A stretch of DNA of 64,000 nucleotides from a virus (Duplodnaviria > Caudoviricetes), in the IMG/VR virus record IMGVR_UViG_3300024270_000002. One strand, written 5' to 3'. Below are positions 41 through 47,185 of the stretch, one piece after another (the stretch's first letter is position 1; every line of letters begins with the position of its first letter). The notes below the pieces were generated by a model. It saw only the letters and a list, made by a program, of their open reading frames with translations, was not told the DNA's origin and ran no database searches. The translations under genes were made by a program, and so were the position numbers.

Positions 41-610
41 TTGCCGCTACGTCAGCACTATCAGTCAGTAACCAGCTATGAAAAATCACCAAATTTTTGT
101 ATTATCTGTAATACAGTTTTGCCCTATGAAAAACGGCATAATAAGACGTGTAGTAAAGCATGTAAAAATAAACTTGCGTCAATAAATGCAGTTAAAAATC
201 AAAATGGCGGTTTAACTTCTGGCGGCGGTCCTAAGAGTACAAAACACGGTAAATATTGTGGTTTTAATTGTGATAGTATTTATGAGTTAGTTTATCTTAT
301 TTATTGTTTAGATCACAATATTAAAATTGAACGTAATAAACAATATTTTACTTATGAATTTGAGGGTAAAATAAGAAAGTATTATCCAGATTTTTATCTT
401 CCAGAAACTGATACATTAATTGAGCTTAAGGGTTATAAAGATTCTAAAGTTGATTTAAAATTACAAGCAGTACTTAACTCAGGAAAAGAAATTAAGATCT
501 TGTATAAACAAGATTTATTGCCTTATTTTGAATATGTAGGAAAAACTTATAACAAAAAATATCATACAGATTATAATAATATTGAAGAGCTTTATGATGA
601 AAGCTGGTAA
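41..610 (+). CDS. PD-(D/E)XK endonuclease with N-terminal Zn-finger (homing-endonuclease-like); frame open to the window edge, so probably 5'-truncated
   Basis: CxxC...CSxxC, then DSxYE...YYPDFYL...IELKGY; frame has no stop from nt 2. Confidence 0.7.
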   Translation: MPLRQHYQSVTSYEKSPNFCIICNTVLPYEKRHNKTCSKACKNKLASINAVKNQNGGLTSGGGPKSTKHGKYCGFNCDSIYELVYLIYCLDHNIKIERNKQYFTYEFEGKIRKYYPDFYLPETDTLIELKGYKDSKVDLKLQAVLNSGKEIKILYKQDLLPYFEYVGKTYNKKYHTDYNNIEELYDESW

Positions 611-623
611 ATATTATTTATGT

Positions 624-703
624 GGGGTTGTAGCGTAATTGGCTAGCGCGCCTGCCTTCCAAGCAGGAGATTTTTGCGAGTTCAAGTCTCGTCAGCCCCT
701 CCA
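624..703 (+). tRNA. tRNA-Gly(TCC)
   Basis: GGGGTTG/CAGCCCC acceptor, CCTGC-CTTCCAA-GCAGG, T-arm, T73-CCA. Confidence 0.9.
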
Positions 704-707
704 TTAT

Positions 708-783
708 GGTAGTATGGCCAAGTTGGTTAAGGCAACGGTCTGCAAAATCGGTATCATTGGTTCGAGTCCAATTACTACCTCCA
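708..783 (+). tRNA. tRNA-Cys(GCA)
   Basis: GGTAGTA/TACTACC, loop CTGCAAA, T73-CCA. Confidence 0.9.
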
Positions 784-789
784 ACATAT

Positions 790-866
790 GGTAGCCGTAG
801 CTCAGTTGGTAGAGCGTCAGATTGTGGCTCTGAATGTCACGTGTTCGATTCACGCCGGTTACCCCA
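790..866 (+). tRNA. tRNA-His(GTG) with genomically encoded G-1
   Basis: G-GTAGCCG/CGGTTAC-C-CCA, TCAGA-TTGTGGC-TCTGA. Confidence 0.9.
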
Positions 867-1012
867 GCATATCTTATTATAGGAAACCATGGGCCTGATA
901 AGAAACTTCGATATATAGAAATAGAATAAGAAGGCTGAGTCCGTCGGTGCAGAGCAATATGAGAGAATGACTAACGGACTACTCTCAAAAAATATTTAGC
1001 ATAAAATAATTT

Positions 1013-1020
1013 GCTAAATT
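1013..1020 (+). promoter_or_regulatory. Putative late-promoter motif GCTAAATT (representative copy)
   Basis: Same motif at 7341, 23048, 27199, 36000, 39144, 43445, 52518, 59737, 62470, mostly just upstream of structural, lysis or endonuclease genes. Confidence 0.55.
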
Positions 1021-1028
1021 ATACAAAC

Positions 1029-1171
1029 GTCCGTAGGCAAGTATTAAAAGCCACTAAGACAATAGGAAGCTTCAACATTGGAACACTCGGAGGGCCAACT
1101 CCACATTTATCCGTTAGTATAAGGTTGTGAAATCCATAGAAGCTGCGTGAGGTTGCAACTACTCACCGGAC
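1029..1171 (+). ncRNA. tRNA-like structured RNA with expanded core
   Basis: GTCCG/CGGAC closing stem, D-like GGC..GCC arm, GTGAG-GTTGCAACTA-CTCAC T-like arm, AGCTTC/GAAGCT stem; directly after the GCTAAATT motif. Confidence 0.35.
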
Positions 1172-1181
1172 AATTTTTAAT

Positions 1182-1260
1182 GGGGGATGGGACTGCTTGG
1201 GGTGGTCGCCAGTTTTGCAAACTGGATTTCAGATGGGTTCGAATCCCATATCCTCCACCA
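1182..1260 (+). tRNA. tRNA-Ala(TGC)
   Basis: GGGGGAT/ATCCTCC with G3:U70, CCAGT-TTTGCAA-ACTGG, A73-CCA; unusual G8. Confidence 0.85.
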
Positions 1261-1329
1261 TACAAACGCTCAGTTCACTTTTGTGAGTCGGTGTACAACG
1301 ATCATCTTCGGAGGCTGAGCTTAAATTAT

Positions 1330-1406
1330 GCAGGCTTAACTCAGTTGGCCAGAGTGCGATCCTTACAAGTTCGAAGTCGGGAGTTCAAGTCTCTCAGCCT
1401 GCACCA
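1330..1406 (+). tRNA. tRNA-Val(TAC)
   Basis: GCAGGCT/AGCCTGC, loop CTTACAA, A73-CCA. Confidence 0.88.
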
Positions 1407-1522
1407 GACGAGTTCGGTTTATACTAGTTTTGTCGAATAACAAAGTCGAGAGACGAAAGGATGTTCCTCGAAGAGGTTGCAAACTCAGAGAGTTAGAAAG
1501 GTATGTAGTCCGCTCGTTGCCA
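1407..1522 (+). ncRNA. CCA-terminated multi-hairpin RNA with a tRNA-type acceptor stem
   Basis: GACGAGT/GCTCGTT-G-CCA; begins immediately after the tRNA-Val CCA. Confidence 0.45.
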
Positions 1523-1529
1523 ATTAAAT

Positions 1530-1602
1530 AGATAGTAAAAGGGACTCATAAGGCTGACGAGAAGTGTAGGCACTGAGGCCGGCTCGACTCCGGCTGCTAT
1601 CT
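1530..1602 (+). ncRNA. Degenerate tRNA-like element (acceptor stem plus T-arm, no CCA)
   Basis: AGATAGTA/TGCTATCT and GCCGG-CTCGACT-CCGGC. Confidence 0.35.
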
Positions 1603-1610
1603 TTATATTT

Positions 1611-1755
1611 CGGGATGTGGCTCAGTTTGGCTAGAGCACGTGATTTGGTCGGAATGATGTTAAGTAGCATACATTATAAATGAAGTGTGGGTTCAAATCC
1701 CATTTTCGGCACCAGGATCACGGGGTCGCAGGTTCGAATCCTGTCATCCCGACCA
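1611..1755 (+). tRNA. tRNA-Pro(TGG), interrupted in the anticodon (exon 1 1611-1647, exon 2 1715-1755)
   Basis: Joined exons give a canonical tRNA-Pro: CGGGATG/CATCCCG, CGTGA-TTTG^GGA-TCACG, A73-CCA. Confidence 0.88.
1648..1714 (+). ncRNA. 67-nt mini-tRNA inserted in the tRNA-Pro anticodon (tRNA-like intron)
   Basis: GTCGGAA/TTTCGGC-A-CCA; D arm ATGT/GCAT; stunted CATT-ATA-AATG arm; T arm GTGGG-TTCAAAT-CCCAT. Confidence 0.85.
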
Positions 1756-1758
1756 TAT

Positions 1759-1834
1759 GGAAAGTTGACGTACACGGTTGGCGTGCTGGACTGAAAATCC
1801 AGAGACTCTGGTTCGACTCCAGAACTTTCCACCA
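1759..1834 (+). tRNA. tRNA-Phe(GAA)
   Basis: GGAAAGT/ACTTTCC, CTGGA-CTGAAAA-TCCAG, CCA. Confidence 0.9.
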
Positions 1835-1867
1835 TTATTTTACTTAAATTTACGGTGAGGTATATTT

Positions 1868-2479
1868 ATGGCAGAGTTTTGTAAAGAGTGCTTTTTAACA
1901 AAGATTGATTCTTCAGTTAATCCTGATAATCTTGTTTTAAGTACAGAAGCAACTCTTTGTGAAGGCTGCGGTGAAAATAAGCCTGTTGTATTAGAAGTAG
2001 ATAATACACCTAAGCTTACTATCGCTGAATGTCAGGTAGAAACTCAGAAGCATATTGAGGCTGTTAGAAAGTATATCAGATTTATGATTGATAAGATTGA
2101 TATGCGCGGCGTAAAGCATGATGCTTCTAAGCTTGAGAGTCCTGAAGTAGAAGTATTTGCAGAGTATACACCAAAATTGAATAATACAACATTCGGTAGT
2201 GAAGAGTACTATCAGAATTTAGATCATATGAAGTCTGCTTTAGATCATCATTATGCATCTAATCGCCACCATCCGGAGCATTTTGTTAATGGAATTAATG
2301 ATATGACATTAATTGATATTTTAGAAATGTTTTGCGACTGGAAGGCAAGCACTCTTAGACATAATGATGGAAATCTGCTGAAGAGCATTGAAACAAATGC
2401 TGAGCGCTTTAACATGGAAGGTCAGCTTAAACAGATTTTAATCAATACTGCTAGAATGATTGACGAACATGAAGATTAA
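1868..2479 (+). CDS. DUF5662-like HD-type protein with N-terminal Zn ribbon
   Basis: HDASK...HHY..NRHHPEH...EMFCDW; paralog at 47169. Confidence 0.7.
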   Translation: MAEFCKECFLTKIDSSVNPDNLVLSTEATLCEGCGENKPVVLEVDNTPKLTIAECQVETQKHIEAVRKYIRFMIDKIDMRGVKHDASKLESPEVEVFAEYTPKLNNTTFGSEEYYQNLDHMKSALDHHYASNRHHPEHFVNGINDMTLIDILEMFCDWKASTLRHNDGNLLKSIETNAERFNMEGQLKQILINTARMIDEHED

Positions 2480-2490
2480 ATAAGCCTATA

Positions 2491-2524
2491 ATATTGCTAG
2501 GTCTTATGGTCTAGCAATATTTTT
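2491..2524 (+). terminator. Rho-independent terminator
   Basis: ATATTGCTAG..CTAGCAATAT hairpin followed by a T run. Confidence 0.6.
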
Positions 2525-2535
2525 ATATTTAAATT

Positions 2536-2612
2536 GGGCGAGTAGTTCAGTTGATTAGAATTTCCGACTGATAATCGGGAGGTCGTAGGTTTGAGCCCTA
2601 CCTCGCCCACCA
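2536..2612 (+). tRNA. tRNA-Ile(GAT)
   Basis: GGGCGAG/CTCGCCC, loop CTGATAA, CCA. Confidence 0.9.
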
Positions 2613-2850
2613 AAGTTTGTGCGTAGCTAATAATAAACGCTCACCGCAAGGGAAGAGGGAAAGCAGCGGTATATAAGTAGCATCACCGAACCTTATATTG
2701 ACTCCCTGTGAGAGCCTTGATTGACGCAGTATAAGTGAGTCCAAAAGCCTTGATAGTAAGACTGGGGTTGAATGCAAGTAGGCATCTTTGGTGCAGTACG
2801 CTAAAAGCTATCTGAAATACCTCTGGCAAATATGTAAATTTTTAAATTTT

Positions 2851-2868
2851 TATTGTATAATATATTAT
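2851..2868 (+). promoter_or_regulatory. Extended -10 promoter TATTGTATAAT (representative copy)
   Basis: TATTGTAT(A/T)AT-type motif recurs before operons, e.g. near 3738, 5569, 6948, 15595, 22316, 26873, 39952, 45308, 48037, 57386, 63890. Confidence 0.65.
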
Positions 2869-2896
2869 AGTGTTTTATAAAAAGGAACTTTAATAT

Positions 2897-3448
2897 ATGT
2901 TACTAAAAAATAATGAGGTAATGGAAAAAATTCTTAAGGAAACTGAAGAAAAAAAGATTCACGTACTGTATTATAAATTAGGAGCAAATATGCAAGCTCT
3001 TAATAAAACGATGATGCAGCTTAGAAGATTGTACGGTGACAGAATTATTGCATTACCTCAGGATATAGCTAAGCTTGAAAATAATGCATTGTCTATTCAA
3101 GATCTTCTTAATATCAGAATGACTATTAATATGCTGATTATGGATAAGCTTAGAGCTGAAAATGATGTACTTCAACCACCAGATATGAGAGTTGGTGCTG
3201 TTATGCCACCTAATGCTGGACGAGTGCCACAGAGTCAAAATGTGATACCTCAGATGACACCAGTTGCAGGCCCTAGTAACATAACAGTACAGCCAGGAAA
3301 CATGCGTCAAGAAGGTGTATATCAGCCACAGAATGGTCCTCAGAGACCTCCGGCTCCGCCTACATCAGGCAGTAACGCAACAAAACCTGCTGCTCGGTGG
3401 TTTAATCAAGGTATTAATTTACCGTTTACAAATGATGAAAGGAATTAA
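2897..3448 (+). CDS. Hypothetical protein with Pro/Gln-rich C-terminus
   Basis: SD AAAGGA plus promoter; N-domain resembles the broken ORF at 26621. Confidence 0.7.
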   Translation: MLLKNNEVMEKILKETEEKKIHVLYYKLGANMQALNKTMMQLRRLYGDRIIALPQDIAKLENNALSIQDLLNIRMTINMLIMDKLRAENDVLQPPDMRVGAVMPPNAGRVPQSQNVIPQMTPVAGPSNITVQPGNMRQEGVYQPQNGPQRPPAPPTSGSNATKPAARWFNQGINLPFTNDERN

Positions 3449-3453
3449 TTAAA

Positions 3454-3585
3454 ATGACGATTGCTGATAATATTAAGGCTATTGATCTTAGAATTGCACT
3501 TCTCAAGTCTCGTGGCGAGACTATGAATATGCGGCTTATTCGTAAGCTTGAGCGGAGAAAGCGCGCTCTGCAGACTCAAGCTTGA
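3454..3585 (+). CDS. Small basic protein (MTIADNIKAIDLRIALLKSRG...)
   Basis: SD AAAGGA, 43 codons, not in the ORF track. Confidence 0.55.
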   Translation: MTIADNIKAIDLRIALLKSRGETMNMRLIRKLERRKRALQTQA

Positions 3586-3759
3586 GTTAATATAAAACAC
3601 CATTATTGCAGTTCAATTCTGCGCTCAGAGGTTCATCCCAGTAGAGTTTATTAGGTTAAAAACTGGGTGGGATATGGTTCGATTCCATTAGGGCATGAGG
3701 TAAATAATGTAAACCTAATTTAAAATTTTAAAAAATATATTGTATAATATATTATGTTT

Positions 3760-3850
3760 GGAGGAGTACTCAAGTTGGTTAAGAGGACGCACTGCTAACG
3801 CGTTAGGCCGGTAACACGGTGCGTGGGTTCGAACCCCACCTCCTCCGCCA
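3760..3850 (+). tRNA. tRNA-Ser(GCT)
   Basis: GGAGGAG/CTCCTCC, loop CTGCTAA, long variable arm, G73-CCA. Confidence 0.92.
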
Positions 3851-3854
3851 ATAT

Positions 3855-3960
3855 GGATAAGTATACAAGCAGACTAAGTAGGGTAACGTAATATCCGTTG
3901 TTTAAGCTAGTGCACTTTGTTTAAACAATATCGTTGGTGCAAATCCAACCTTGTCCACTA
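3855..3960 (+). ncRNA. Pseudo-tRNA (Tyr-like) with an 11-bp variable arm
   Basis: GGATAAG/CTTGTCC, GGGTA-ACGTAA-TATCC, GTTGG-TGCAAAT-CCAAC; ends ACTA. Confidence 0.55.
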
Positions 3961-3970
3961 TTTATTATAT

Positions 3971-4058
3971 GGGTCGGTATGTCTAGTTGGCGATGACACC
4001 TGACTGTAAATCAGGCACACGAGAAACATCGGGGGTTCGACTCCCTCCCGGCCCACCA
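3971..4058 (+). tRNA. tRNA-Tyr(GTA)
   Basis: GGGTCGG/CCGGCCC, CCTGA-CTGTAAA-TCAGG, CCA. Confidence 0.9.
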
Positions 4059-4061
4059 TAT

Positions 4062-4233
4062 GGGTTGATTCGCACGGGGCGAATAAGTACTATAAGGAGC
4101 TATGAGAGTAAAAACTGTGGTGTGGAGATAAGCGCCCACTGCCACCTTGCGTGAGCGTACCGGTTAAGCTCGGATGGGTCTCCTCAGAAAATTATAAGAA
4201 AAAAGAGAGGTTCGAGTCCTCTATAACCCACCA
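4062..4233 (+). ncRNA. tRNA-like RNA with a large internal domain
   Basis: GGGTTG/TAACCC-A-CCA and AGAGG-TTCGAGT-CCTCT enclose about 135 nt of hairpins. Confidence 0.55.
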
Positions 4234-4469
4234 TTTAGGAAATAGCTGATGTGTAAGGCATCTTGTCGGTAAGGAGACAATAAACCCTTTATCAGTGTGC
4301 GGAGCGCGGTACTAAGGGACGCAGCTATAATTCTCCCGGACGCAGAATTATCCCAGGCAATTGTTGCAAGGTAGCGCTCAAGTTGCTGGATCTTATAACC
4401 AGAATCGTAGCGCAACGAAGAGGATGCTGACCGTAAACAACCTCTATAAAAACAACGGTCCATTAATAT

Positions 4470-4552
4470 GCGGGTGTGGTGTAATGGCAGCCACGTATGC
4501 CTTAGGAGCATATGCCTTGTGCGTGTGGGTTCGAATCCCACCACCCGCACCA
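4470..4552 (+). tRNA. tRNA-Leu(TAG)
   Basis: GCGGGTG/CACCCGC, TATGC-CTTAGGA-GCATA, CCA. Confidence 0.9.
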
Positions 4553-4563
4553 ATAACTTTTAT

Positions 4564-4640
4564 GGCGGTGTAGTTCAGCTGGTTAGAACGCGTGCCTGTC
4601 ACGCACGAGGTCCTCGGTTCAAGTCCGTGCATCGTCGCCA
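4564..4640 (+). tRNA. tRNA-Asp(GTC)
   Basis: CGTGC-CTGTCAC-GCACG, G73-CCA. Confidence 0.9.
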
Positions 4641-4967
4641 CTTGTAGAAATGTTAGCAAAATAAGCCACTACAGCAAACCAGAGGCGTGGGTAACCAATC
4701 CCACAGGGCTCGCTATGAGCTCTTGGGCACGGAAGCTGCTGGGTATCAAATCGGCGGATATGCGGTTGGTCGACCTTAAGATCACCATTAATTAAAAATA
4801 TTATTGGTCGCTGTGGTATGAACACAGACGCTGTCGCAGGTCGTAGCGGCGGAGCAAGGACGCGGTGAACAGACGACGTTAGTAACCAGTCTAAATGAGG
4901 TAAGGGCCATAAGCTTGCGTAAAGTGGTGCGTCTTAGCGGACAATTCCACGCCAATAAGTTATATAT

Positions 4968-5154
4968 CGTGAGGATAGACGAAGCATCGAGTCGGGTCTC
5001 TCATCATATGAGGCTGACAACACTAGAAGTAAGTTTGAATGTATCAGCTGTAGACTAAGAAACTGCTTCTTGAAGTGAAAAATAGGTGATGTACTTCGGT
5101 ACCATGTATTTAGTAGCAAGTTATAAGTAGGTTTAAGTCCTACCTTCACAACCA
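4968..5154 (+). ncRNA. Initiator-tRNA-like RNA with a giant variable region
   Basis: C1:A72 mismatch acceptor CGTGAGG/CTTCACA-A-CCA, TCTC-ATCATAT-GAGG arm (CAT), T arm GTAGG-TTTAAGT-CCTAC. Confidence 0.5.
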
Positions 5155-5160
5155 TTATAT

Positions 5161-5237
5161 TGCCGCTTAGCTCAGTCGGTAGTAGCACGTGACTGTTAAT
5201 CACGGTGTCCTGGGTTCGAGCCCCAGAGCGGCAGCCA
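5161..5237 (+). tRNA. tRNA-Asn(GTT)
   Basis: TGCCGCT/AGCGGCA, CGTGA-CTGTTAA-TCACG, G73-CCA. Confidence 0.9.
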
Positions 5238-5412
5238 ATAGAGTAAGAGCTACTCAAAAAGCTATTGCAAAGCTTTATAAAGCTCCATGCGATGCGAAGA
5301 TGCCGCAAGTGTCTCCTGTAATAAGCCACTATGCGAAAAAGCCGTTAATGGGCCTCTGCTAAACGTTAAATACAGAGGAAAAAGACTTGTGATACAGGTA
5401 CAAGTCTATTAT

Positions 5413-5488
5413 GCTCGGTTAGTCAAGTTGGTCAAGACGCGGGCCCTTCAAGCCTGAGGCAGGAGTTCGAACCTCCTACCGAGTACCA
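5413..5488 (+). tRNA. tRNA-Glu(TTC)
   Basis: GCTCGGT/ACCGAGT, CGGGC-CCTTCAA-GCCTG (C33), CCA. Confidence 0.85.
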
Positions 5489-5491
5489 TAT

Positions 5492-5549
5492 AGAGCCAAT
5501 GCTTATTTCTAACGTAAATTTTGGGAATTTAAAAGTAGTAGCTTGGCCA
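5492..5549 (+). ncRNA. Small RNA family, copy 1 (see 7203-7544)
   Basis: GCCAA-T-GCT-TATTTCT...AGC-TTGGC-CA. Confidence 0.55.
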
Positions 5550-5589
5550 AATTAAAAATTTAAAAAATATATTGTATAATATATTATAC

Positions 5590-6471
5590 GGGCCTGACCG
5601 ATAACTTCCCGTAAGGGAATGAAAGAGGTAAACTGACAAGACCTCGCTGTGATGAGCAGTACCTCAGGCAATGTGTGACGGGACCTGTAAGAATTGAAAA
5701 GATTCTTACGAATATGCTAACCCCATGTTCTAACTTATCAATGATGAAATGAAAAGAGTTTAGTTGAGGGTCAACTGACTGAACTATTCTCGCTCTCGCA
5801 AGGAGCTGGCTTCAACGCAAAAGGATTTGATGAGGTAAGGTAAGCTACAGGAAGTAAAATAGTTCGAGTTTAGCAAGCAAGGGCGACTTCCATTTATATC
5901 TGCTACGGTGGGTATAAGAAATATGAGTACAATGCGACGGAAAGTATTGAAGGCGGGTAGCATTCTTGCACTCAAAAGGTGTGAGAACTACGACAATAGT
6001 CTGTCTTCTGTCAATCTCAACTTAGCGTGGGTTGGAATCCCACCCCGGGTGCCAATTTGATTTTAACACCTCGGGATAGTTCGCACCTATCCCTTATATA
6101 CCCGGGTAGCTCAGTGCTAGAGCGGTTGTCATAGGAAAACAATGTCATGAGTAAAAATCTATTGTTAGAAACAGAGAAAAGTGTCTTAAGCCCACAGCTG
6201 GTAAGGCAATGTGGGATATAAGGTGTCACAAGCATCTTGTATTTGATTGAAATGAATCTATAGGGGTGTAGCAACCTCGAACAGCCCGCAAGGTTGATAG
6301 TGGAATGATAATCGAGTAGCTGTTTCTGTAAAGGCGTAAGCAAGCCTGGAGCCCTTGTGCTGGGGTGACGAATTGCAGGCATGAGCGGTACTTCCCAAAA
6401 GGAAGTGGAAAAGTGACTAAAAAATAAGGTCATTAAGTCGTAGCAACTGAAAGATATATTCTCAGTCTTTT
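5590..6471 (+). ncRNA. Large ROOL-like structured RNA containing a permuted tRNA domain (6018-6128)
   Basis: ORF-free unit from promoter to hairpin plus T run; long-range pair CTACGAC(5988)/GTCGTAG(6437); segments CTCAAAAGG, GAAAACAATG, ACTAAAAAATAAGGT recalled as ROOL-like (not verified). Confidence 0.55.
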
Positions 6472-6569
6472 AATTTTCTTACCATCCATTTTTGGATAAA
6501 GTATTATACTAATTGCCAATGAGGCGCTCGAAGACAGCGATATTCAGCCGCTGCCAATTAGTATTTTAT

Positions 6570-6645
6570 GCTCGATTCTTCTAGTTGGTCAGGAAGTAAG
6601 ATTCTCAATCTTAAAACAGGTGTTCAAACCACCTATCGAGTACCA
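6570..6645 (+). tRNA. tRNA-Glu(CTC)
   Basis: GCTCGAT/ATCGAGT, TAAGA-TTCTCAA-TCTTA, CCA. Confidence 0.85.
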
Positions 6646-6759
6646 GGCGCTGATGTGAAGCAAATAGAGGGGCAGCGACTTGGGGCACCCCAGGAGCGGT
6701 GTTACCAAACCCCAATGTGCGGCGAGAGCCTTAGGAGACCTTATTCCTGGCTTTTATAT

Positions 6760-6834
6760 GCGCGGTTAGTTTAATGGATAGAACGTGTGGCTACGGACCA
6801 TGAGATATGGGTTCGATTCCTGTACTGCGCGCCA
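6760..6834 (+). tRNA. tRNA-Arg(ACG)
   Basis: GCGCGGT/ACTGCGC, loop CTACGGA, CCA. Confidence 0.88.
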
Positions 6835-6837
6835 TAA

Positions 6838-6913
6838 GCCTCTGTAGTCTAGTTGGATAAAACAAGGGACTTCTAATCCCTCGTCCTGCGTTCAAGTCGC
6901 AGCGGAGGTGCCA
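6838..6913 (+). tRNA. tRNA-Arg(TCT)
   Basis: AGGGA-CTTCTAA-TCCCT, G73-CCA. Confidence 0.88.
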
Positions 6914-6990
6914 ATTTTACATAAGTTAATTAAAAAAATAAAATAAATATTGTATAATATAATATAAAATTTATTTAGTAGATACTTAAA

Positions 6991-7182
6991 ATGACTCAGT
7001 TTCAATTTGATTTAATTTGTAAGATTATTGAAAACGGAGCACCTGCTCTTGCAAATGAGCTTTGTAATTCGCTTGATGCTTTGGTTAAAGCCTATACTGA
7101 GTGTATGACTGAAAATGAGCAGTTGAAGGCAAAGCTTAATGATAACTCTGAACAGAGTGGCACAGCAGAAACTGTAAAGTAA
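6991..7182 (+). CDS. Hypothetical small coiled-coil protein
   Basis: ORF downstream of an extended -10 promoter. Confidence 0.6.
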   Translation: MTQFQFDLICKIIENGAPALANELCNSLDALVKAYTECMTENEQLKAKLNDNSEQSGTAETVK

Positions 7183-7202
7183 TTAAAGTAATTAAGTAAT
7201 AT

Positions 7203-7544
7203 AGAGCTTGTACTTATTTCTTTTTACTGGATAATAGAAATTAAAAAAGCAGTCAAGCCAATTACGCAAAACTTTTTGAGCCTATACTTATTTCTTTTAA
7301 AATTATGGGATATTTTACAGTAGTTAGGCCAAAGTTATTTGCTAAATTTAATATAGAGCTCATACTTATTTCTTAGCAATACATACAGTCCTGGACGTAT
7401 GGGCCAGGAATCAAATAAAATAGTTGAGCCACATATTTTAAATAGAACCTATGCTTATTTCTTAGAAAAAAGTAATGCGCCGGCGTTGCTGATAAGAGAA
7501 ACCTTATTACTTCCGCTGGCTTAAAGATAGTGTTAGCTAGGTCA
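7203..7544 (+). ncRNA. Tandem array of four small RNAs with a conserved bulged terminal stem
   Basis: Copies 7203-7260, 7278-7331, 7355-7431, 7444-7544; covarying stems and invariant TATTTCT. Confidence 0.6.
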
Positions 7545-7551
7545 AATATAT

Positions 7552-7628
7552 TGCCGAGTAGAGCAGCCTGGTAGCTCGTTAGCCTCATAAGCTAAAGGTC
7601 GTTGGTTCAAATCCAACCTCTGGCACCC
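7552..7628 (+). tRNA. tRNA-Met(CAT), atypical (initiator-type D arm, bulged acceptor, no encoded CCA)
   Basis: GAGC-AGCCTGGTA-GCTC, TTAGC-CTCATAA-GCTAA, GTTGG-TTCAAAT-CCAAC. Confidence 0.75.
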
Positions 7629-7703
7629 GCTGGCGTGGCTCAACGGTAGAGCTACTCACTTGTAATGAGTAGGTTGGGGGTTCGATTCCCTTCGCCAGCT
7701 CCA
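7629..7703 (+). tRNA. tRNA-Thr(TGT)
   Basis: GCTGGCG/CGCCAGC, ACTCA-CTTGTAA-TGAGT, CCA. Confidence 0.9.
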
Positions 7704-11895: not shown

Positions 11896-12465
11896 ATGGC
11901 AACTATTTATCATTACTTTGAAAAGGATACCTTTGAGCCAGAAAAGAACTATTTTTCTACTGAAAAGGTAAAGTGTGAGCGTCAGGAAACTGATGTCGAA
12001 AAGCAGCTTTCGGACCTGTCTTATAAGTGGTCAGCTATTGGCTTTCATTGCATTGGCTGGGGCTGTTTAGTTGGTTTAATTTTGATGCTTACTTTTGGCA
12101 CTCTTGGAAGTCTTTTTAGTTCTTGGTTTTATATCGGAGCTGCAATCGGCGGGATTCTTTTTGTAGGTGGTATTATCTTCGCAAACGCAGTCTGCTGGCC
12201 TACAGAGCAGAAGTATGCGGAAGAGCTTCGAAAGTATAGAATAGACTACGAAAATGTACTGTGGGCGGTAGCAACTACTGATATTAGAATTTATAATGAC
12301 GAACAGAAGAAAATTGCAGAAGCTTGGAGAGCAGAGCATCCTCTTGAGGAAAAGATCAGAGCTTGCCTTAAGGACCCCATGTCAAGTGTAGATATTGCTA
12401 ATCTTGCTAGGTACTATGCAGAAGAATACGTAAAGGAAGGTGTTTCACGTGAAACTGTGGATTGA
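11896..12465 (+). CDS. Membrane protein
   Basis: Two TM helices; promoter and SD upstream. Confidence 0.65.
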   Translation: MATIYHYFEKDTFEPEKNYFSTEKVKCERQETDVEKQLSDLSYKWSAIGFHCIGWGCLVGLILMLTFGTLGSLFSSWFYIGAAIGGILFVGGIIFANAVCWPTEQKYAEELRKYRIDYENVLWAVATTDIRIYNDEQKKIAEAWRAEHPLEEKIRACLKDPMSSVDIANLARYYAEEYVKEGVSRETVD

Positions 12466-15917: not shown

Positions 15918-16260
15918 TTTGCACGATATTGAGAAGTGTGAAGCTTGCGGAGCAGAAAATGTAAAAGGTCTTGTTGCTTGTTCTTTATTTGGAGCATACT
16001 CTGGGGCGTGGTGTGAAAACTGCCTTAGAGAAGGTAGAGATAGCTACAACTTGATGGTAGACTATATTGCTGATGCGGGGCAGTGGCCTGAGGATATAAA
16101 TGAGACTTATCAAGAAGAAGTTAGACGTCAGCTTAAATTGCATAATAAAACAGAAGAAGACTTTAAGAAAGACGTAGATAAGATTATTGAGTTTTTACGC
16201 TCAGATATGCCTACTACTTATATAGTTTTAGATACTATTGGTACAGAGGGGGATTTTTAA
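15883..16260 (+). CDS. Hypothetical Zn-binding protein
   Basis: CxxC...CxxC. Confidence 0.6.
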   Translation: MDVTRRKIMKLDLHDIEKCEACGAENVKGLVACSLFGAYSGAWCENCLREGRDSYNLMVDYIADAGQWPEDINETYQEEVRRQLKLHNKTEEDFKKDVDKIIEFLRSDMPTTYIVLDTIGTEGDF

Positions 16261-16780
16261 CATGAGATCAAGAATTTGTTTCCTTGATTATGACGGGGTC
16301 GTTAACACACCAATGTGGAATGAAGAAGGCACTCATTGCTCGTACAACCACAATGGTCATGGTAAAGTAAATAATTTTCAGGCAGTTCAGTGGCTTTCTG
16401 AGGCGTGCCAGAAGTTTGGCTATGATATTGTAGTCACTTCCACTTGGCGCATCTGGGACAATTATAAGGAATGTCTTACCCACGGTGGTCTTAGAGATGG
16501 TATTGAAATTCTTGGTAAAACTGATCGTCTTAGAGGCGTTTGTAGAGGTGCTGAGATTAAGAAGTACATCGATGAGCATCCCGAAATCCAGTATTATGTT
16601 ATTGTAGATGATGAAGCGGATATGCTACCCGAACAAATGGGTCATTTTATTATGACTAACGGAGATACAGGTTTTAATCTCAGTGAGTTTAAAAGATTTG
16701 AAGAAATTTTTAACAAAGATAATGAGCGGGGCGGGTCTTTTCCTGAAAGAAAACAGAAAGATTATAGGAGAACAGTATGA
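16238..16780 (+). CDS. HAD phosphatase of the Swiss-Army-Knife RNA-repair type
   Basis: FLDYDGV, VVTSTWR, RGAEI, VIVDD. Confidence 0.75.
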   Translation: MVQRGIFNMRSRICFLDYDGVVNTPMWNEEGTHCSYNHNGHGKVNNFQAVQWLSEACQKFGYDIVVTSTWRIWDNYKECLTHGGLRDGIEILGKTDRLRGVCRGAEIKKYIDEHPEIQYYVIVDDEADMLPEQMGHFIMTNGDTGFNLSEFKRFEEIFNKDNERGGSFPERKQKDYRRTV

Positions 16781-16971
16781 TTACAAAAAAGCAAGCTATT
16801 GATATTGTAAATAAATTTGAATTTTTCCAAGGGCAGAGAGCAGGAAGAGAGCTTTGGAGCTCAAAAGAGTACTCAGTACAGGAAGTAGATCTCGTAAGCT
16901 TTCGTCAAGATTGTTATGACTTGCTTGAATATTTAAAAAATACGGAGACTAAACAGAATGATAATGTATAA
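16777..16971 (+). CDS. Hypothetical protein
   Basis: FFQGQRAGRELW; coupled ORF. Confidence 0.6.
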   Translation: MITKKQAIDIVNKFEFFQGQRAGRELWSSKEYSVQEVDLVSFRQDCYDLLEYLKNTETKQNDNV

Positions 16972-17509
16972 TACTGGAATGATTATTGGCAGATTTCAAC
17001 CGTTCCATTTAGGACATTCTATTATCCTTGACAAAGCGCTAGACCAATGCAATAAAGTAATTGTGGTAATTGGTTCTGCTCAAGAAAGTGGAACACCTTT
17101 AAACCCATTGTCTGCATCTGAAAGAGAACAAATTATTATAGATAGTTTTACGAATAGACTTGATTATGATAATCTTGAAAAAATTGAATTCCTGCATCTT
17201 AACGATAGAGAACATTGGTGCAATGATTCTTCTTTTGGAGAATATGTTATAAATGCAATCGAGCATACATACGGAGTAACACCTAGCGTAGTATTTGAAG
17301 GAAAAGAATCTTCTCGTAATAGCTGGTTTGATACTATCGATATTGATGTAGTTCAGATATCAAGAAATAAATGTGCAGTATCTGGTACTGAATTAAGAGA
17401 GGCTATTTATAATGGAGATAGAACTACCTGGGAAAATCAATGTGCTCCTGGAATTGAATATTGTTTTGATAGTATAAGGGAGGCGATATTAAATGCTACA
17501 AAAAACTAA
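16958..17509 (+). CDS. nadM: NadM-type (Na)MN adenylyltransferase
   Basis: GRFQPFHLGH, GSAQ, NPL...ER, SGTELR. Confidence 0.8.
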   Translation: MIMYNTGMIIGRFQPFHLGHSIILDKALDQCNKVIVVIGSAQESGTPLNPLSASEREQIIIDSFTNRLDYDNLEKIEFLHLNDREHWCNDSSFGEYVINAIEHTYGVTPSVVFEGKESSRNSWFDTIDIDVVQISRNKCAVSGTELREAIYNGDRTTWENQCAPGIEYCFDSIREAILNATKN

Positions 17510-18245
17510 AGAGCTAATTACTTGGATTAGAGAACAGTTTAAAGATATTCCTGATGGTCATGCCATTATCGGTATTTCAGGCGGTAAGGACTCTACTATC
17601 GCTGCAGCGCTTTGTGTTGAGGCCTTGGGCGCTGATAGAGTAATCGGAGTATTAATGCCACAAGGCGTACAAAAAGATATTAGTGATTCTTATGAAGTTG
17701 TTGCAACTCTTAAGCTTCAGTATCATGTTGTTAATATTGGAGCTGCCTGTGAAGAATTATATCGTTCTATTAGCGATGCTGTTTTTCTTTGTGGCGGTAA
17801 AAATGCAATAGAATCTAATTCTATGATTACGACAAATGCTCCGGCAAGAATGCGTATGACTGCTTTGTACGCTATTGCAGCACTTTATACTAATTCCCGT
17901 GTGGTAAATACCTGCAACGCATCCGAAGATTATGTTGGTTATTCCACTAAGTATGGCGATGCAGCTGGGGACTTTTCGCCTCTCGGTAATCTTACTGTGA
18001 GAGAGGTGCTTAAAATTGGGGATGATTTAGGCCTTCCTAAGCATTTAGTGCATAAGCCGCCTTCTGACGGTATGTGCGGTAAAACAGACGAAGATAATCT
18101 TGGATTTACTTATGAACAGCTTGATGACTATCTTTTGGGAACAGGCGATGTTCCGCTGGATGTAGTTGAAAAAATTAAAAAACTGCATAAAGCTACTCGA
18201 CACAAATATGTACTTATGCCAATGTTTAATAATTTTAAAAAGTGA
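17493..18245 (+). CDS. nadE: NH3-dependent NAD+ synthetase
   Basis: GISGGKDS, ARMRM, GYSTKYGD, KPPSDG, TDE. Confidence 0.92.
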   Translation: MLQKTKELITWIREQFKDIPDGHAIIGISGGKDSTIAAALCVEALGADRVIGVLMPQGVQKDISDSYEVVATLKLQYHVVNIGAACEELYRSISDAVFLCGGKNAIESNSMITTNAPARMRMTALYAIAALYTNSRVVNTCNASEDYVGYSTKYGDAAGDFSPLGNLTVREVLKIGDDLGLPKHLVHKPPSDGMCGKTDEDNLGFTYEQLDDYLLGTGDVPLDVVEKIKKLHKATRHKYVLMPMFNNFKK

Positions 18246-19456
18246 GGAAAATAACTATGATGAAGCTTAGTCCTATTATTGTATCTTTGTTGGATACCGA
18301 CCTTTATAAATGGAATATGTGTCAGGTATTCTTTCATAAGCATACCAATATGAATGGTAAGTATATTTTTAAATGTAGAAACGAAGGAGTAGAGTTTACT
18401 TCTGAGATGGTTGAAGAAATCAATGCTCAGATCGACCACCTCTGTACTCTTACGCTGACTGATGAAGAACTTGACTATCTCGCTTCTTTGAGATTTATTA
18501 AGAAGGACTATGTTGAGTTCCTTCGTATTTGGAGACCACTTCGCAGATATGTAAATTGTTTTTATGATGATAGTAGCCCCTGCAAGATGAGAATTGAAAT
18601 CGAAGGGCCACTTTTCTCAGTAATGCAGTTTGAAATTTATCTTCTTGAAATTGTTAATGAGACGTATTTCAGAATGAAGTATGATTATATGCAGCTTGTA
18701 GAGTCAGCTAAAGACAGACTTTATTATAAGACTAATTCTTTTAGGCTGGAAGAATACGATTTTAAATTTGCTGAATTTGGTTGTCGAAGAAGACTTTCCA
18801 GAGAATGGCAGGATTATGTAGTTAGCGAGCTTCTAAAGACCGGCAAGTGCGTAGGCACTTCTAATACGTATCTTGCGATGAAGTATGGTTGTAAACCCAT
18901 TGGAACTTACGCTCATGAGTACGTTCAGATGTTCCAGGGAGTTCCTGGTATTCAGCTTGCGTACACAAATAAGGTTGCAATGGAAGAGTGGTTTGATGAG
19001 TATCAGGGAGATAATGGAACTGCACTTACTGATACTCTCGGAACAGACCTTTTCCTTAGAGACTTTAACAAGCTTCAGGCAATGTGCTATACTGGAGTAA
19101 GACATGATAGCGGAGATCCTTATGAGTGGGGAGAAAAAATTATCGCTCATTATGAGAAGCTTGGAATTGACCCCAAAACAAAGACTCTTCTTTTTAGTGA
19201 TAGCCTTGATTTTGTAAGGGCTCAGGCCATCTATGATTATTTCAACAAAAGAATTAATGTAAGCTTTGGTATTGGAACTTATCTTTCAAATGACACTAAT
19301 GTAAATCCTCTTAATATTGTTATTAAGCTTCAATATGTAAATGGTCACCCCGTCGCAAAGATTTCTGATAATCCCGGAAAGGCTATGTGCCAAGATGACT
19401 CCTATCTCGCATATTTGAAAAACGCAGTTGATTATAGATTAAAGGAAGGTATTTAA
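18242..19456 (+). CDS. pncB: Nicotinate phosphoribosyltransferase
   Basis: LLDTDLYK, EFGCRRR, GTSN, GTYAHE, RHDSGDP, FSDSLD, KISD. Confidence 0.92.
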   Translation: MRKITMMKLSPIIVSLLDTDLYKWNMCQVFFHKHTNMNGKYIFKCRNEGVEFTSEMVEEINAQIDHLCTLTLTDEELDYLASLRFIKKDYVEFLRIWRPLRRYVNCFYDDSSPCKMRIEIEGPLFSVMQFEIYLLEIVNETYFRMKYDYMQLVESAKDRLYYKTNSFRLEEYDFKFAEFGCRRRLSREWQDYVVSELLKTGKCVGTSNTYLAMKYGCKPIGTYAHEYVQMFQGVPGIQLAYTNKVAMEEWFDEYQGDNGTALTDTLGTDLFLRDFNKLQAMCYTGVRHDSGDPYEWGEKIIAHYEKLGIDPKTKTLLFSDSLDFVRAQAIYDYFNKRINVSFGIGTYLSNDTNVNPLNIVIKLQYVNGHPVAKISDNPGKAMCQDDSYLAYLKNAVDYRLKEGI

Positions 19457-19458
19457 AT

Positions 19459-20022
19459 ATGAAAGTATTGCTTGTAGTTGACGTTCAGAATGATTTTGTA
19501 ACTGGAGCTTTGGCAAATCCTGATGCACAGGCCAAGATTCCTGCCATTAGGGAAAGGATTCAGCAGCGAATTAATGAGGGCTGGCAGGTAATGTTTACAC
19601 AGGATACACATTATAACAGCTATAGTGCTTCTATGGAAGGTAAGTATTTGCCAGTGCCTCACTGTATTGATGGAACTTGGGGTTGGCAAATAGTAGATGA
19701 GGTCAAGGAGTTTGAAGCTTCTCAACTTCATATGCCAATTTGTAAGCTTAGATTTGGTGATGATTACCTATTTGAAAAGATTATTAGCCGTTTATTTCCA
19801 AATTGGCGAAGCATAAATAATTACTTTATTGAAGAAATTGAGCTTATTGGTTTCTGTACTGATATTTGTGTAGTTTCTAATGCTTTGATTTTGAAGGCAT
19901 CTGTTGATAATAATACTGTTATTAGCTGTGATGCTTCTTGCTGTGCTGGTACATCTATTGAAGCACATGAGGCAGCTATTAAAGTAATGCAGTCTTGTCA
20001 GGTAGAGGTAAGAAATGCATAA
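19459..20022 (+). CDS. pncA: Nicotinamidase
   Basis: VVDVQNDF, DTH, PHC, GFCTDICV. Confidence 0.88.
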   Translation: MKVLLVVDVQNDFVTGALANPDAQAKIPAIRERIQQRINEGWQVMFTQDTHYNSYSASMEGKYLPVPHCIDGTWGWQIVDEVKEFEASQLHMPICKLRFGDDYLFEKIISRLFPNWRSINNYFIEEIELIGFCTDICVVSNALILKASVDNNTVISCDASCCAGTSIEAHEAAIKVMQSCQVEVRNA

Positions 20023-23246: not shown

Positions 23247-23975
23247 ATGATAGCTTCTTATATTTCTGAAGCTGTACTAACATCCGCAGCCGATAAAGCA
23301 AGTGCAGATCAATATTTGACCATTATACACAATGCACTCACAGCTAATCGTAAACGCTATAATAAGTCGGATAGCCGTTATGTTTATTATGAGCAACATC
23401 ATATATTACCAAAAAGTCTGTACCCTGAGCATCAAAAAGACAAAACAAATTTAGTTTTACTTTTAGCAGAAGAACATTTTGCTGTACACCAACTTCTAAC
23501 AAAAGTGTGGCCAGGTCAGGAAATGGCTTATGCTTTTTGGAGAATGTGTTATTGTAATGGTGCCAAGTTAACTATAACGGCTGAAGACTACGCTTATGGT
23601 AGACAACTTATGCAACAATACCCTGCTTTCAAAGGTAGACACTTTACTGACGAATCTAAAGCACTACTTAGCCAACGTTCTCGTGAATTTTGGCAGCGTG
23701 GCGGTTATACTCACTCTAAAGAACAAGATTTAAAAATGGTTGCTACACGAAAAGCAGATGGTTCATATAATCGTACTCCTGAACAAAATACTAAGTTAGC
23801 CACAACTATGAAAGGCAGTATTTTTATCAACAACGGTATCCAAAACAAACGAGTTTACGAGTGGGAATTAGATAAATATTTGGCACTTGGTTGGCTAAGA
23901 GGAAAACTCCCATTATCTGCAGAACACAAACGTCATATTGGAGAGGCTTCACGTAATCGTAAAAGAGTTAAATAA
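23247..23975 (+). CDS. HNH homing endonuclease with NUMOD3-like motifs
   Basis: EQHHILPKS...NLVLL..EEHF..H; KGRHFTDESK. Confidence 0.8.
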   Translation: MIASYISEAVLTSAADKASADQYLTIIHNALTANRKRYNKSDSRYVYYEQHHILPKSLYPEHQKDKTNLVLLLAEEHFAVHQLLTKVWPGQEMAYAFWRMCYCNGAKLTITAEDYAYGRQLMQQYPAFKGRHFTDESKALLSQRSREFWQRGGYTHSKEQDLKMVATRKADGSYNRTPEQNTKLATTMKGSIFINNGIQNKRVYEWELDKYLALGWLRGKLPLSAEHKRHIGEASRNRKRVK

Positions 23976-23984
23976 AATTAAATA

Positions 23985-24794
23985 ATGAAAGGCAATTATA
24001 TTATGGCAAATAAAAAAGATTCGCTCGGCGATAGAATGAAAGATAATTATGAAAATAGAGCTAAGACTTATCTTACCAGAAGGCTTCCTGTGGTGATCCG
24101 AATCGACGGCAAATGTTTTCATTCATTTTGTAAGAACTTTCAGAAACCTTATGACGAGGTTTTTCATAAGGCAATGAACTCTACCTTGCAGTATCTTTGT
24201 AAAAACATTCAGGGATGTAAGTTCGGATACACCCAGAGCGACGAAATTTCGCTTCTGTTGACTGATTACGATACACTGACTACAGATGCCTTTTTTGATT
24301 ACAACGTGCAAAAGATCTGCTCTATTGCGGCTTCTATGGCTACTCTGCACTTTAATAAGGCTTTCAGAACTTATGTTAATGAATATACTGCTGGTAAAAC
24401 TCTTGATAGCTATTCTATTGAGTTACTAAAGGCCAAGGATAAGGGAGCAATGTTTGACGCTCGCTGCTTCAGCATTCCTGCATCGGAAACGTGTAACGTA
24501 TTTATTTGGAGGCAGCAAGATGCGACTCGAAATGCTGTTCAGATGCTCGGGCAGACGTACTTTAGTCACAAGGAACTCCATAAGAAGTCTACTTCAGATA
24601 TCCAGGAAATGTTGTGGCAAAAGGGTATTAATTTCAATGATATGCCTATTGAGTTTAAGCGTGGTGTTTGCTGTTTTAAGAGAGCTATTGAGGTAAGAGG
24701 CGCAGCACGAACTGAGTGGTATATTGATAAAGAATGTCCTATTTTTACACAGGATAGAAATTATATTGAAAGATTTCTTCCCAAGGAGAACTAA
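23985..24794 (+). CDS. Thg1-like tRNA(His) guanylyltransferase / 3'-5' polymerase
   Basis: RIDGKCFH, YTQSDEIS, FDAR, WRQQDATRN. Confidence 0.92.
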   Translation: MKGNYIMANKKDSLGDRMKDNYENRAKTYLTRRLPVVIRIDGKCFHSFCKNFQKPYDEVFHKAMNSTLQYLCKNIQGCKFGYTQSDEISLLLTDYDTLTTDAFFDYNVQKICSIAASMATLHFNKAFRTYVNEYTAGKTLDSYSIELLKAKDKGAMFDARCFSIPASETCNVFIWRQQDATRNAVQMLGQTYFSHKELHKKSTSDIQEMLWQKGINFNDMPIEFKRGVCCFKRAIEVRGAARTEWYIDKECPIFTQDRNYIERFLPKEN

Positions 24795-46899: not shown

Positions 46900-47185
46900 A
46901 CTGACAGCTAATGTCGTTACACTTGCGGAGACCGATGAACTTTTAGCTGCAGTTGAATCAATTAAGCTTTGGCAGCTTGAAATTGAGTGTGCAGAAGAAG
47001 CTAAAAAGAAAGCAAGTGAATATTTAGATAAGGTACTTGCTGAATCTTTGAAACAATCATCCTTAAAGTTTTTGGAAGGAGAGCTTGTTGCTTTGCCAGA
47101 GTATCATAAAATATTTTGTTATGTGCATGAAGATTTTATTTCAATTCCAGTGCCTGAGGAGTATATAAATGAAGGAATTCTTTAA
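46877..47185 (+). CDS. Hypothetical protein
   Basis: Coupled ORF. Confidence 0.55.
   Translation: MTKIPMNKLTANVVTLAETDELLAAVESIKLWQLEIECAEEAKKKASEYLDKVLAESLKQSSLKFLEGELVALPEYHKIFCYVHEDFISIPVPEEYINEGIL

Follow-up and report, generated by a model that had tools for sequence, protein, structure and literature searches.

To our knowledge, the textbook view of bacteria and their viruses is that their only tRNA introns are self-splicing. For example, the tRNA-Leu(UAA) genes of cyanobacteria and plastids contain a group I intron, whose classical insertion site is between U34 and A35. In Archaea and Eukarya, tRNA introns are marked by a bulge-helix-bulge motif, cut out by the EndA or Sen endonuclease, and sealed by the RtcB or Trl1 ligase, and in the Thermoproteales these introns move between tRNA genes. 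There are also tRNA-shaped elements that are excised by RNase P and a 3' tRNase, such as the mascRNA of MALAT1, MEN-beta, and the "tRNA punctuation" of mitochondria. And in the PrrC/Pnkp/Rnl1 system of phage T4, the phage's ligase repairs nicked anticodon loops while the body of the tRNA bridges the two halves.

The tRNAs of Lak megaphages have "enigmatic" introns in their anticodon loops, and one of these (in tRNA-Thr(UGU)) matches the Rfam tRNA model and "itself may encode a tRNA" (Devoto et al. 2019, PMC6784885). The Lak introns are exactly present or absent between related phages, and no mechanism was given (PMC6784885, Fig. 4 and Table S6). The inserts are 79-114 nt long, have an extra 5' hairpin and a spacer before the tRNA-like part, and have no CCA end (PMC6784885, Table S6). 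We found no published explanation of these introns in the literature, nor a demonstration that they are spliced.

Here we describe an interrupted tRNA-Pro(UGG) gene from an uncultured phage (Caudoviricetes; IMG/VR record IMGVR_UViG_3300024270_000002). By the window, we mean the whole stretch of 64,000 nucleotides that was analysed. The gene contains a 67-nt insert that almost certainly belongs to a family of tRNA-shaped inserts, and this family occupies the anticodon loops of tRNAs encoded by one clade of large (roughly 150-240 kb) uncultured phages. On balance, we favor the reading that the insert is a copy of a mobile intron that derives from tRNA-Leu(CAA) and would be spliced in three steps. 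The observation of a split tRNA-Pro gene is solid, while the splicing mechanism is an unproven proposal.

Like the Lak introns, these are short, tRNA-like inserts in the anticodon loops of phage tRNAs, with exact presence or absence. Unlike the Lak introns, the entire insert is tRNA-like (from +1 to CCA76), it lies inside the anticodon, and it appears to derive from tRNA-Leu(CAA); also, our phages belong to an unrelated clade. So tRNA-shaped introns are not new with our phages, as the Lak introns precede them, and our inserts seem to be a variant of a barely described kind of intron. The original prediction had proposed a wholly new type of intron whose ends are defined by its tRNA shape: the Lak precedent contradicts the first part, and all ten members of the family agree with the second.

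The other known systems are more distant. Like the bulge-helix-bulge introns, our inserts are small, lie in anticodon loops, are not ribozymes, and would be removed by proteins and sealed by a ligase (removal being what we propose). But inspection of the splice sites revealed no bulge-helix-bulge, and its absence had been predicted; instead, there are two long helices separated by a 4-nt/7-nt internal loop. Furthermore, EndA and RtcB were not found in five related phages, the ends of our inserts are defined by tRNA shape, and the hosts are bacteria. As with mascRNA-type signals, a tRNA-shaped element defines the ends of the flanking RNA. However, those signals are eukaryotic or organellar, the flanking RNAs are not rejoined, and the CCA is added later, whereas here it is encoded. 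The T4 system is similar in that the insertion sites of our family (mostly 34/35, that is, between tRNA positions 34 and 35) match typical cuts by anticodon nucleases, but it repairs damage and does not remove an encoded insert. Also, the ligases found in our phages are Rnl2-like (PF09414) or Rnl5-like (phrog_968).

The tRNA-Pro gene is interrupted

ARAGORN in intron mode called one interrupted tRNA at 1611-1755 of the window, with an insert of 67 nt; standard ARAGORN passes over this region. If the exons are joined, ARAGORN identifies a 78-nt tRNA-Pro(UGG) with C1-G72, A73, the loop UUUGGGA, and an encoded CCA. In the spliced tRNA, the exon junction would read ...GUGAUUUG joined to GGAUCACG....

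We collected relatives of this phage via the neighboring DUF5662 gene. The closest relative (locus L001 on contig G001; 90% protein identity) has an uninterrupted tRNA-Pro at 5591-5665, which is identical to the joined exons at 77 of 78 positions; the mismatch is one base in the variable loop. This gene shows that ARAGORN's own split of 1611-1755, as Leu(CAG), was wrong. Because L001 provides an empty site, we can place the insert at exactly 67 nt between anticodon positions 35 and 36, except that a flanking G leaves a one-base ambiguity (1649-1715, at 36/37, is equally possible). These were the boundaries that had been predicted, and removing the insert leaves a clean tRNA-Pro, as had also been predicted. 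There is no target-site duplication relative to the empty site. The comparison shows that the tRNA-Pro copy is a gain specific to this lineage.

The general concern with metagenomes is that repeats such as tRNAs can give rise to chimeric assemblies, and we know of nothing more than this prior to suggest an assembly or sequencing artefact. On the other hand, the same 145 nt recur in five assemblies that are independent of one another (four are from JGI and one is from ENA); these are all five of the loci with DNA among those that carry the exact DUF5662 protein, and similar inserts are present in six other related genomes or contigs. The samples that contain this phage are JGI 3300024272, 3300022753, 3300024303, and 3300018430 and ENA ERZ27248377. 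The agreement of the five assemblies excludes a chimera, and the chance of any artefact is negligible. The insertion is real and is fixed within this phage lineage. Contigs of 229-238 kb from many samples encode this exact DUF5662 protein, so the phage's genome is about 235 kb (for example, Ga0257077_10000143).

The window's tRNA cluster contains 18 ordinary tRNAs at 624-7703 and a GOLLD RNA, and the interrupted gene is the only tRNA-Pro that we found in the cluster. The GOLLD RNA (RF02032, 160 bits; gathering score 150) is at 5948-6468, and L001 has one as well (11939-12454). The window also encodes two DUF5662 paralogues (1868-2476 and 47169-47735), one of which lies in the tRNA cluster, directly after the interrupted tRNA-Pro and a tRNA-Phe.

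Table 1. Positions of the interrupted gene, the parts of its insert, the members of the insert family, and other features. A site such as 35/36 lies between those two positions of the host tRNA.
Feature	Sequence	Position	Strand	Details
tRNA-Pro(UGG) 5' exon, tRNA positions 1-35	window	1611-1647	+	Acceptor 5' strand, D arm, anticodon stem 5' strand, U32 U33 U34 G35; ARAGORN on joined exons; identical to uninterrupted L001 tRNA-Pro
tRNA-shaped candidate intron, 67 nt	window	1648-1714	+	Rfam tRNA, family model R1, covariation, empty site in relative
tRNA-Pro(UGG) 3' exon, positions 36-76 with encoded CCA	window	1715-1755	+	ARAGORN, comparison with L001
Insert acceptor stem	window	1648-1654 / 1704-1710	+	7 bp
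Insert D arm	window	1657-1670	+	4-bp stem
Insert stunted central arm	window	1672-1682	+	3-bp stem, 5-nt loop
Insert T arm	window	1687-1703	+	Loop UUCAAAU
Insert discriminator A and CCA	window	1711-1714	+	ACCA
Family member a	window			Pro(UGG), 35/36, 67 nt
Family member b	G001			Asn(GUU), 34/35, 75 nt
Family member c	L153			Lys(UUU), 34/35, 77 nt
Family member d	G004			Leu(UAA), 34/35, 67 nt
Family member e	G005			Gln(UUG), 34/35, 115 nt
Family member f	G006			Lys(UUU), 32/33, 77 nt
Family member g	G006			Leu(UAA), 34/35, 51 nt
Family member h	G002			Ile(UAU) or Arg(UCU), 34/35 if Ile, 35/36 if Arg, 74 nt
Family member i	L235 (window's phage, 7.9 kb upstream of window start)	188-376		Leu(UAA), 34/35 (U34/A35), 102 nt; position of the whole interrupted tRNA
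Family member j	G002			Leu(UAA), about 35/36, 46-47 nt
HAD phosphatase, "Swiss Army Knife" RNA-repair type	window	16238-16777	+	PF18143, 7e-22
HNH homing endonuclease beside Thg1	window	23247-23972		phrog_655
Thg1-like 3'-5' nucleotidyltransferase, first gene of RNA-repair module	window	23985-24791	+	PF04446, 3e-33
HD-domain phosphohydrolase, Thg1 module	window	24795-25349	+	PF01966, E 2.7e-4, 21.7 bits (cut-off 22); phrog_28876, 2e-53
Calcineurin-like metallophosphoesterase, candidate RNA end-healing enzyme	window	25355-26122	+	PF00149, 1.5e-13
Short tRNA-Leu gene	L232	8826-8902
Short tRNA-Leu gene	L233	16726-16802
Short tRNA-Leu gene	L153	10981-11057	-
Short tRNA-Leu gene	L232	2697-2773

The insert resembles a small tRNA

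By itself, the insert scores 36.0 bits on the Rfam tRNA model RF00005 (gathering score 29; E = 1e-4 in a search of 9 kb). Its anatomy (Table 1) also matches the prediction of a CCA-ended cloverleaf with a stunted anticodon arm. It is not an ordinary tRNA, as the D loop lacks GG, there is no standard anticodon arm (5 bp and 7 nt, with U33), and ARAGORN finds nothing in the insert alone. The predicted stability is unremarkable compared with shuffled sequences (the thermodynamic z-score is -1.1 for the insert and -1.9 for the whole gene), so the support for the fold is comparative and not energetic. The insert does have the features of an RNase P substrate (a 7-bp acceptor stem on a 5-bp T stem, a 7-nt T loop, G at +1, and RCCA), and we predict from this anatomy that it resembles one.

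Could the insert be a very small ribozyme, either self-cleaving or self-splicing? Four members of the family (d, g, i, and j) share their host tRNA and site with the classical group I intron of cyanobacterial tRNA-Leu(UAA), which lies at 34/35, although member j is at about 35/36. But that intron is a self-splicing ribozyme of over 200 nt, while the inserts are 46-115 nt, which is far below the size of group I or group II introns, and they have no ribozyme core. For the window's insert, Rfam shows no group I or group II core (67 nt, versus more than about 200 nt expected), which agrees with the original prediction, and an Rfam scan with E values up to 1 gave only tRNA. Also, the conserved parts of the family are those of a tRNA minihelix only. 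We consider a ribozyme to be very improbable. Separately, we dropped a hammerhead-like pattern (CUGAnGA and GAAA at about 1450-1560) that had no match in Rfam.

A family of tRNA-shaped inserts

It had been suggested that related phages should be searched for tRNA halves that flank tRNA-like inserts. Using ARAGORN in intron mode and the Rfam tRNA model across the tRNA clusters of the relatives, we found nine more inserts of 46-115 nt, in G001, G002, G004, G005, G006, L153, and the window's own phage. Their hosts are tRNA-Asn, Lys, Leu, Gln, and Ile or Arg. The splice points from ARAGORN were off by 1-2 nt, and we corrected them using empty sites, features of the tRNA body, and the repertoire of tRNAs in each genome. 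We also replaced some of the identities (Leu(CAG) became Pro, Thr(GGU) became Asn, Thr(UGU) became Lys, and Pro became Gln), and the tRNA that ARAGORN called Arg(UCU) (member h) is probably Ile(UAU). Other intron calls were chimeras of adjacent tRNAs and not introns (L001 4994-5149 and 5592-5913, L002 4614-4767, L027, L086 5778-5934, and L199).

With the readings fitted to each genome's tRNA repertoire, all ten inserts span the tRNA-like +1 to ACCA (CCA76), so the predicted coincidence of tRNA-like ends and exon junctions extends to the whole family. Eight of them begin with G. In contrast, the insertion point within the host's loop varies (32/33, 34/35, or 35/36), with seven of the ten at 34/35 if member h is counted as Ile(UAU). 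Since the ends are constant while the position in the loop varies, the boundaries are set by the insert's own shape.

Both full cloverleafs and minihelix forms of the insert occur within this one clade of phages. In G001 (L001), tRNA-Asn is split by a 75-nt tRNA-like insert, and the window has an intact tRNA-Asn there, with the same upstream flank. This reciprocal presence and absence in tRNA-Asn and tRNA-Pro is what a mobile element would be expected to produce.

The family seems to descend from a tRNA-Leu(CAA)-type gene. A covariance model (R1) built from seven members gives scores of 62.8-76.8 bits for the members (62.8 for the window's insert), and the next best matches, at no more than 49.4 bits, are the phages' own tRNA-Leu(CAA) genes, to which the family is closest by this ranking. 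Also, when we searched metagenomes with a pattern for the T arm and acceptor, we obtained mostly ordinary tRNA-Leu genes (hundreds of them) and one new member, in L153. It is these two results that point to tRNA-Leu(CAA). The exact sequence of the window's insert has no match in IMG/VR, a pattern scan for both ends found the copy in L001 alone plus chance matches, and there is no free-standing copy of the insert in the 0.5 Mb that we searched.

We noticed other unusual tRNA-like elements in these phages. There are free-standing 77-nt tRNA-Leu(CAA) and tRNA-Leu(UAG) genes without the long variable arm that is normally the hallmark of tRNA-Leu (Table 1), and these resemble the insert in L153. 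The spacers between tRNA genes contain tRNA-like scaffolds that have an acceptor and a T arm but lack a normal anticodon arm (window, about 1525-1605 and 5085-5154; L001, 5471-5583). The one at 5085-5154 scores 23.5 bits on R1, and the one in L001, which is upstream of tRNA-Pro, scores 42.2 bits on Rfam's "drum RNA" (gathering score 43). Finally, a conserved tRNA-Tyr(GUA)-like gene has a structured insertion of 84-93 nt in the region of the variable arm (L228 3383-3555, L229 10760-10922 on the minus strand, and L235 4545-4707). ARAGORN wrongly reports this gene as an intron-containing tRNA-Asn.

Selection on the inserts and on the exons

In an alignment of eight members, 97.9% of the cells in the acceptor and T stems are paired, and in 9 of the 12 pairs both partners vary. 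None of 500 shuffles reached the observed values, and sliding the partner strand reduces pairing to 35-52%. So the covariation that had been proposed as a check on the insert is strong in these two arms. G1-C72, U2-G71, and A73-CCA are nearly invariant among the aligned inserts. In contrast, the central region can be as short as 11 nt or as long as about 60 nt, and the central arm is not conserved across the family. What the family retains is the acceptor/T-arm minihelix with CCA (and, in most members, the D arm as well). These are the parts of a tRNA that are read by RNase P and by 3' tRNases.

The exons also appear to be under selection, as judged by comparing the tRNA-Leu(UAA) genes. The insert in this gene is found in four diverged phages (102 nt in this phage, 67 nt in G004, 51 nt in G006, and about 47 nt in G002), with G005 supplying the empty site, and it is the oldest member of the family. 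The exons of this phage and those of G004 share 97.7% identity, and both of the differences belong to a single compensatory pair in the anticodon stem. Over the same comparison, the introns are just 58.8% identical, with a 35-nt central indel. If the exons are under selection, then the insert has to be excised from the RNA, and we think it is probably removed so that tRNA-Pro works. The case from the young Pro copy alone is weaker, as it would rest on the copy belonging to the family and being fixed in five samples.

Alternatively, the insert might stay in the RNA. The tRNA-Pro gene would then be a recent pseudogene, and either the small tRNA-like RNA would be functional, with the tRNA halves as a scaffold from which tRNA processing would release it, or nothing would be. 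Since the closest relative lacks the Pro insertion and its tRNA differs from the joined exons by one base, the insertion is young and its intact exons alone prove little; in addition, this phage has lost the ligase gene that lies beside Thg1 in a relative (see below). However, the interrupted form of the Pro gene is fixed across five samples. Also, for every member of the family, the tRNA clusters, in the regions that we examined, contained no second gene with the anticodon of the interrupted one, and relatives have an uninterrupted gene with that anticodon. The persistence of the Leu(UAA) intron with intact exons and a compensatory change is hard to reconcile with pseudogenes as well, and the decay of exons that might have been expected of a one-off insertion was not seen in the homologs. 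As for a functional insert RNA, the central arm is the least conserved part (inserts of 67 to 115 nt), which argues against a role in decoding or one that depends on an anticodon. Overall, retention of the insert seems quite improbable.

How the insert might be removed

We propose three steps for removal of the insert. First, the host's RNase P would read the insert's acceptor/T-arm minihelix and RCCA and cut between 1647 and 1648, which would leave exon 1 with a 3'-OH. Second, an endonuclease would cut after the CCA, between 1714 and 1715, which would leave exon 2 with a 5'-phosphate; the best candidate is an enzyme of the RNase Z/BN type that cleaves after CCA. Third, the body of the outer tRNA would hold the halves together while an ATP-dependent RNA ligase (Rnl2-like, with RlaP) seals the nick in the anticodon loop. 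Because both ends of the insert correspond to the ends of a mature tRNA, this is the simplest route, and we give it slightly less than an even chance of being correct.

The second step is problematic if the host is a Firmicute. In INPHARED, we found no close cultured relatives by DNA, and the DnaB protein is at most 31% identical to those of cultured phages. The nearest cultured phages by DnaB infect Firmicutes, so the host of this phage is possibly a Firmicute as well. Bacillus-type RNase Z is inhibited by CCA, so in Firmicutes there is no assured enzyme for the cut after CCA. The third step has a difficulty too, as Rnl2-type ligases favor nicks in duplexes over nicks in loops.

The original prediction noted that no RNA ligase was visible in the window, and our annotation of the window's genes agrees. 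But all five relatives have a single RNA ligase gene each, and its product is Rnl5-like (phrog_968 / TIGR02306) in G001, G005, and G006, and a 209-217 amino acid PF09414 enzyme in G002 and G004. Using the ligase from G004 as the query, we retrieved a 209 amino acid PF09414 protein (P0289), whose nearest solved structure is T4 Rnl2. (With the ligase from G002 as the query, the copy from the window's phage was not among the results.) P0289 is encoded directly after RlaP and a gene for a 132 amino acid protein on the 174-kb contig 0sr5bUD7. That contig also carries an exact 229 amino acid protein of this phage, followed by a run of genes that matches in order and in the lengths of the products. 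So there is good but indirect evidence, from the shared contig code, the exact protein, and the run of genes, that the P0289 ligase belongs to the window's phage. Two homologues of the Rnl5-type ligase from G001 (P0015 and P0095) belong to other phages.

In G001, the Rnl5-like ligase (77741-79159) lies just upstream of Thg1, between it and NT5C, and the contig of P0015 also has a ligase beside Thg1. The Thg1 module of the window is syntenic with both, and the ligase is cleanly missing from the corresponding spot (22325/22358). The metallophosphoesterase of this module has a partial match to phrog_8238, which is annotated as "RNA ligase". The HAD phosphatase (Table 1) has at most a loose association with splicing.

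Two other genes border the tRNA cluster of this phage: a KTI12/AAA_33 polynucleotide-kinase-like gene (L241 2618-3547) and a gene for a YafQ/RelE/ParE-type endoribonuclease toxin (L241 6045-6341), both of them upstream of the window.

It had been suggested that a ligase, either Rnl1, Rnl2, or RtcB, might be found elsewhere in the genome. An Rnl2-like enzyme is indeed present, with RlaP, on a contig that probably belongs to this phage, but the five relatives have no genes for RtcB, nor for RNase Z-like proteins or reverse transcriptases. A search of the relatives for Rnl1 gave no match, and the positive controls for that search did not score either. EndA (PF01974) is absent from the five relatives, and in this case the archaeal controls were positive. 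Given the absence of EndA, RtcB, and RNase Z-like genes, the nucleases would come from the host.

The repair genes might instead point to a different mechanism, in which a dedicated endonuclease leaves a 2',3'-cyclic phosphate and a 5'-OH, a kinase and phosphoesterases heal these ends, and a ligase seals them, much as with T4 Pnkp/Rnl1 or yeast Trl1. The phage's healing kit (Pnk-like, HAD_SAK_2, HD, and metallophosphoesterase, with RlaP by the ligase) would be superfluous for ends of the kind that RNase P and RNase Z leave, and the YafQ/RelE-type gene beside the tRNA cluster encodes an endoribonuclease. However, there is no candidate for the dedicated endonuclease, and EndA is absent from the five relatives. 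Nor would this mechanism explain why the introns' ends are mature tRNA ends in 10 of 10 cases, which is expected of processing by RNase P and at CCA. And large phages commonly carry such kits (RNA ligase, RlaP, Pnk, and phosphoesterase) as a counter-defence, with or without introns (PMC7824862), so the healing kit can be explained by defence against the host's anticodon nucleases. We think that this mechanism is unlikely. By the same token, because such kits are common, the presence of a ligase is weak support for the route via RNase P and a cut after CCA.

How the inserts might spread, and why they matter

We can only speculate as to how the inserts move. If the mini-tRNA is excised with a 5'-phosphate and a 3'-OH, then it would have ends that a repair ligase could join into a break in an anticodon loop. 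Position 34/35 is a typical site for cleavage by anticodon nucleases, and reverse ligation into loops that were opened by the host's nucleases would account for the hotspot there. The larger scenario, in which large phages splice tRNAs with the housekeeping enzymes of tRNA end processing (RNase P and a nuclease for the cut after CCA) and a repair ligase, and selfish introns that mimic tRNAs spread by reverse ligation and DNA copying, seems to us somewhat unlikely as a whole. The suggestion that the insert gates the production of tRNA-Pro or shields its anticodon was not borne out, and a selfish mobile element fits the data at least as well.

If the inserts are spliced, then tRNA splicing would have a third, independent solution: by mimicking a tRNA, the intron lets universal enzymes define both splice sites. 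The RNA ligases and RlaP of phages would have a routine job besides the repair of damage. Splicing would also explain many of the "missing" or "pseudo" tRNAs in annotations of phages: standard tRNA finders for bacteria skip the interrupted genes, so annotations miss them. And it would offer a natural design by which small RNAs could be released from scaffolds made of tRNA. With ten inserts, empty sites, and a series of sizes from 46 to 115 nt, our comparative set makes the question of splicing directly testable in vitro.

Other features of the phage

The window has three more features that are unrelated to tRNAs. First, polA is split or invaded by an intron: the family A DNA polymerase is encoded by two open reading frames (57430-59295 and 60960-61811) that are separated by a gene for a GIY-YIG/NUMOD homing endonuclease (59790-60806). 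Second, there is an NAD+ salvage block at 16958-20019 (NadD-like adenylyltransferase, NAD synthase, NAPRTase, and an isochorismatase/nicotinamidase-like protein), which is absent from the syntenic region of G001; a study of gut jumbo phages provides a comparison (PMC11662467). Third, the window encodes a full-length glycyl radical enzyme similar to pyruvate formate-lyase (50084-52309; PF02901, 4e-199), which suggests that the host is anaerobic.
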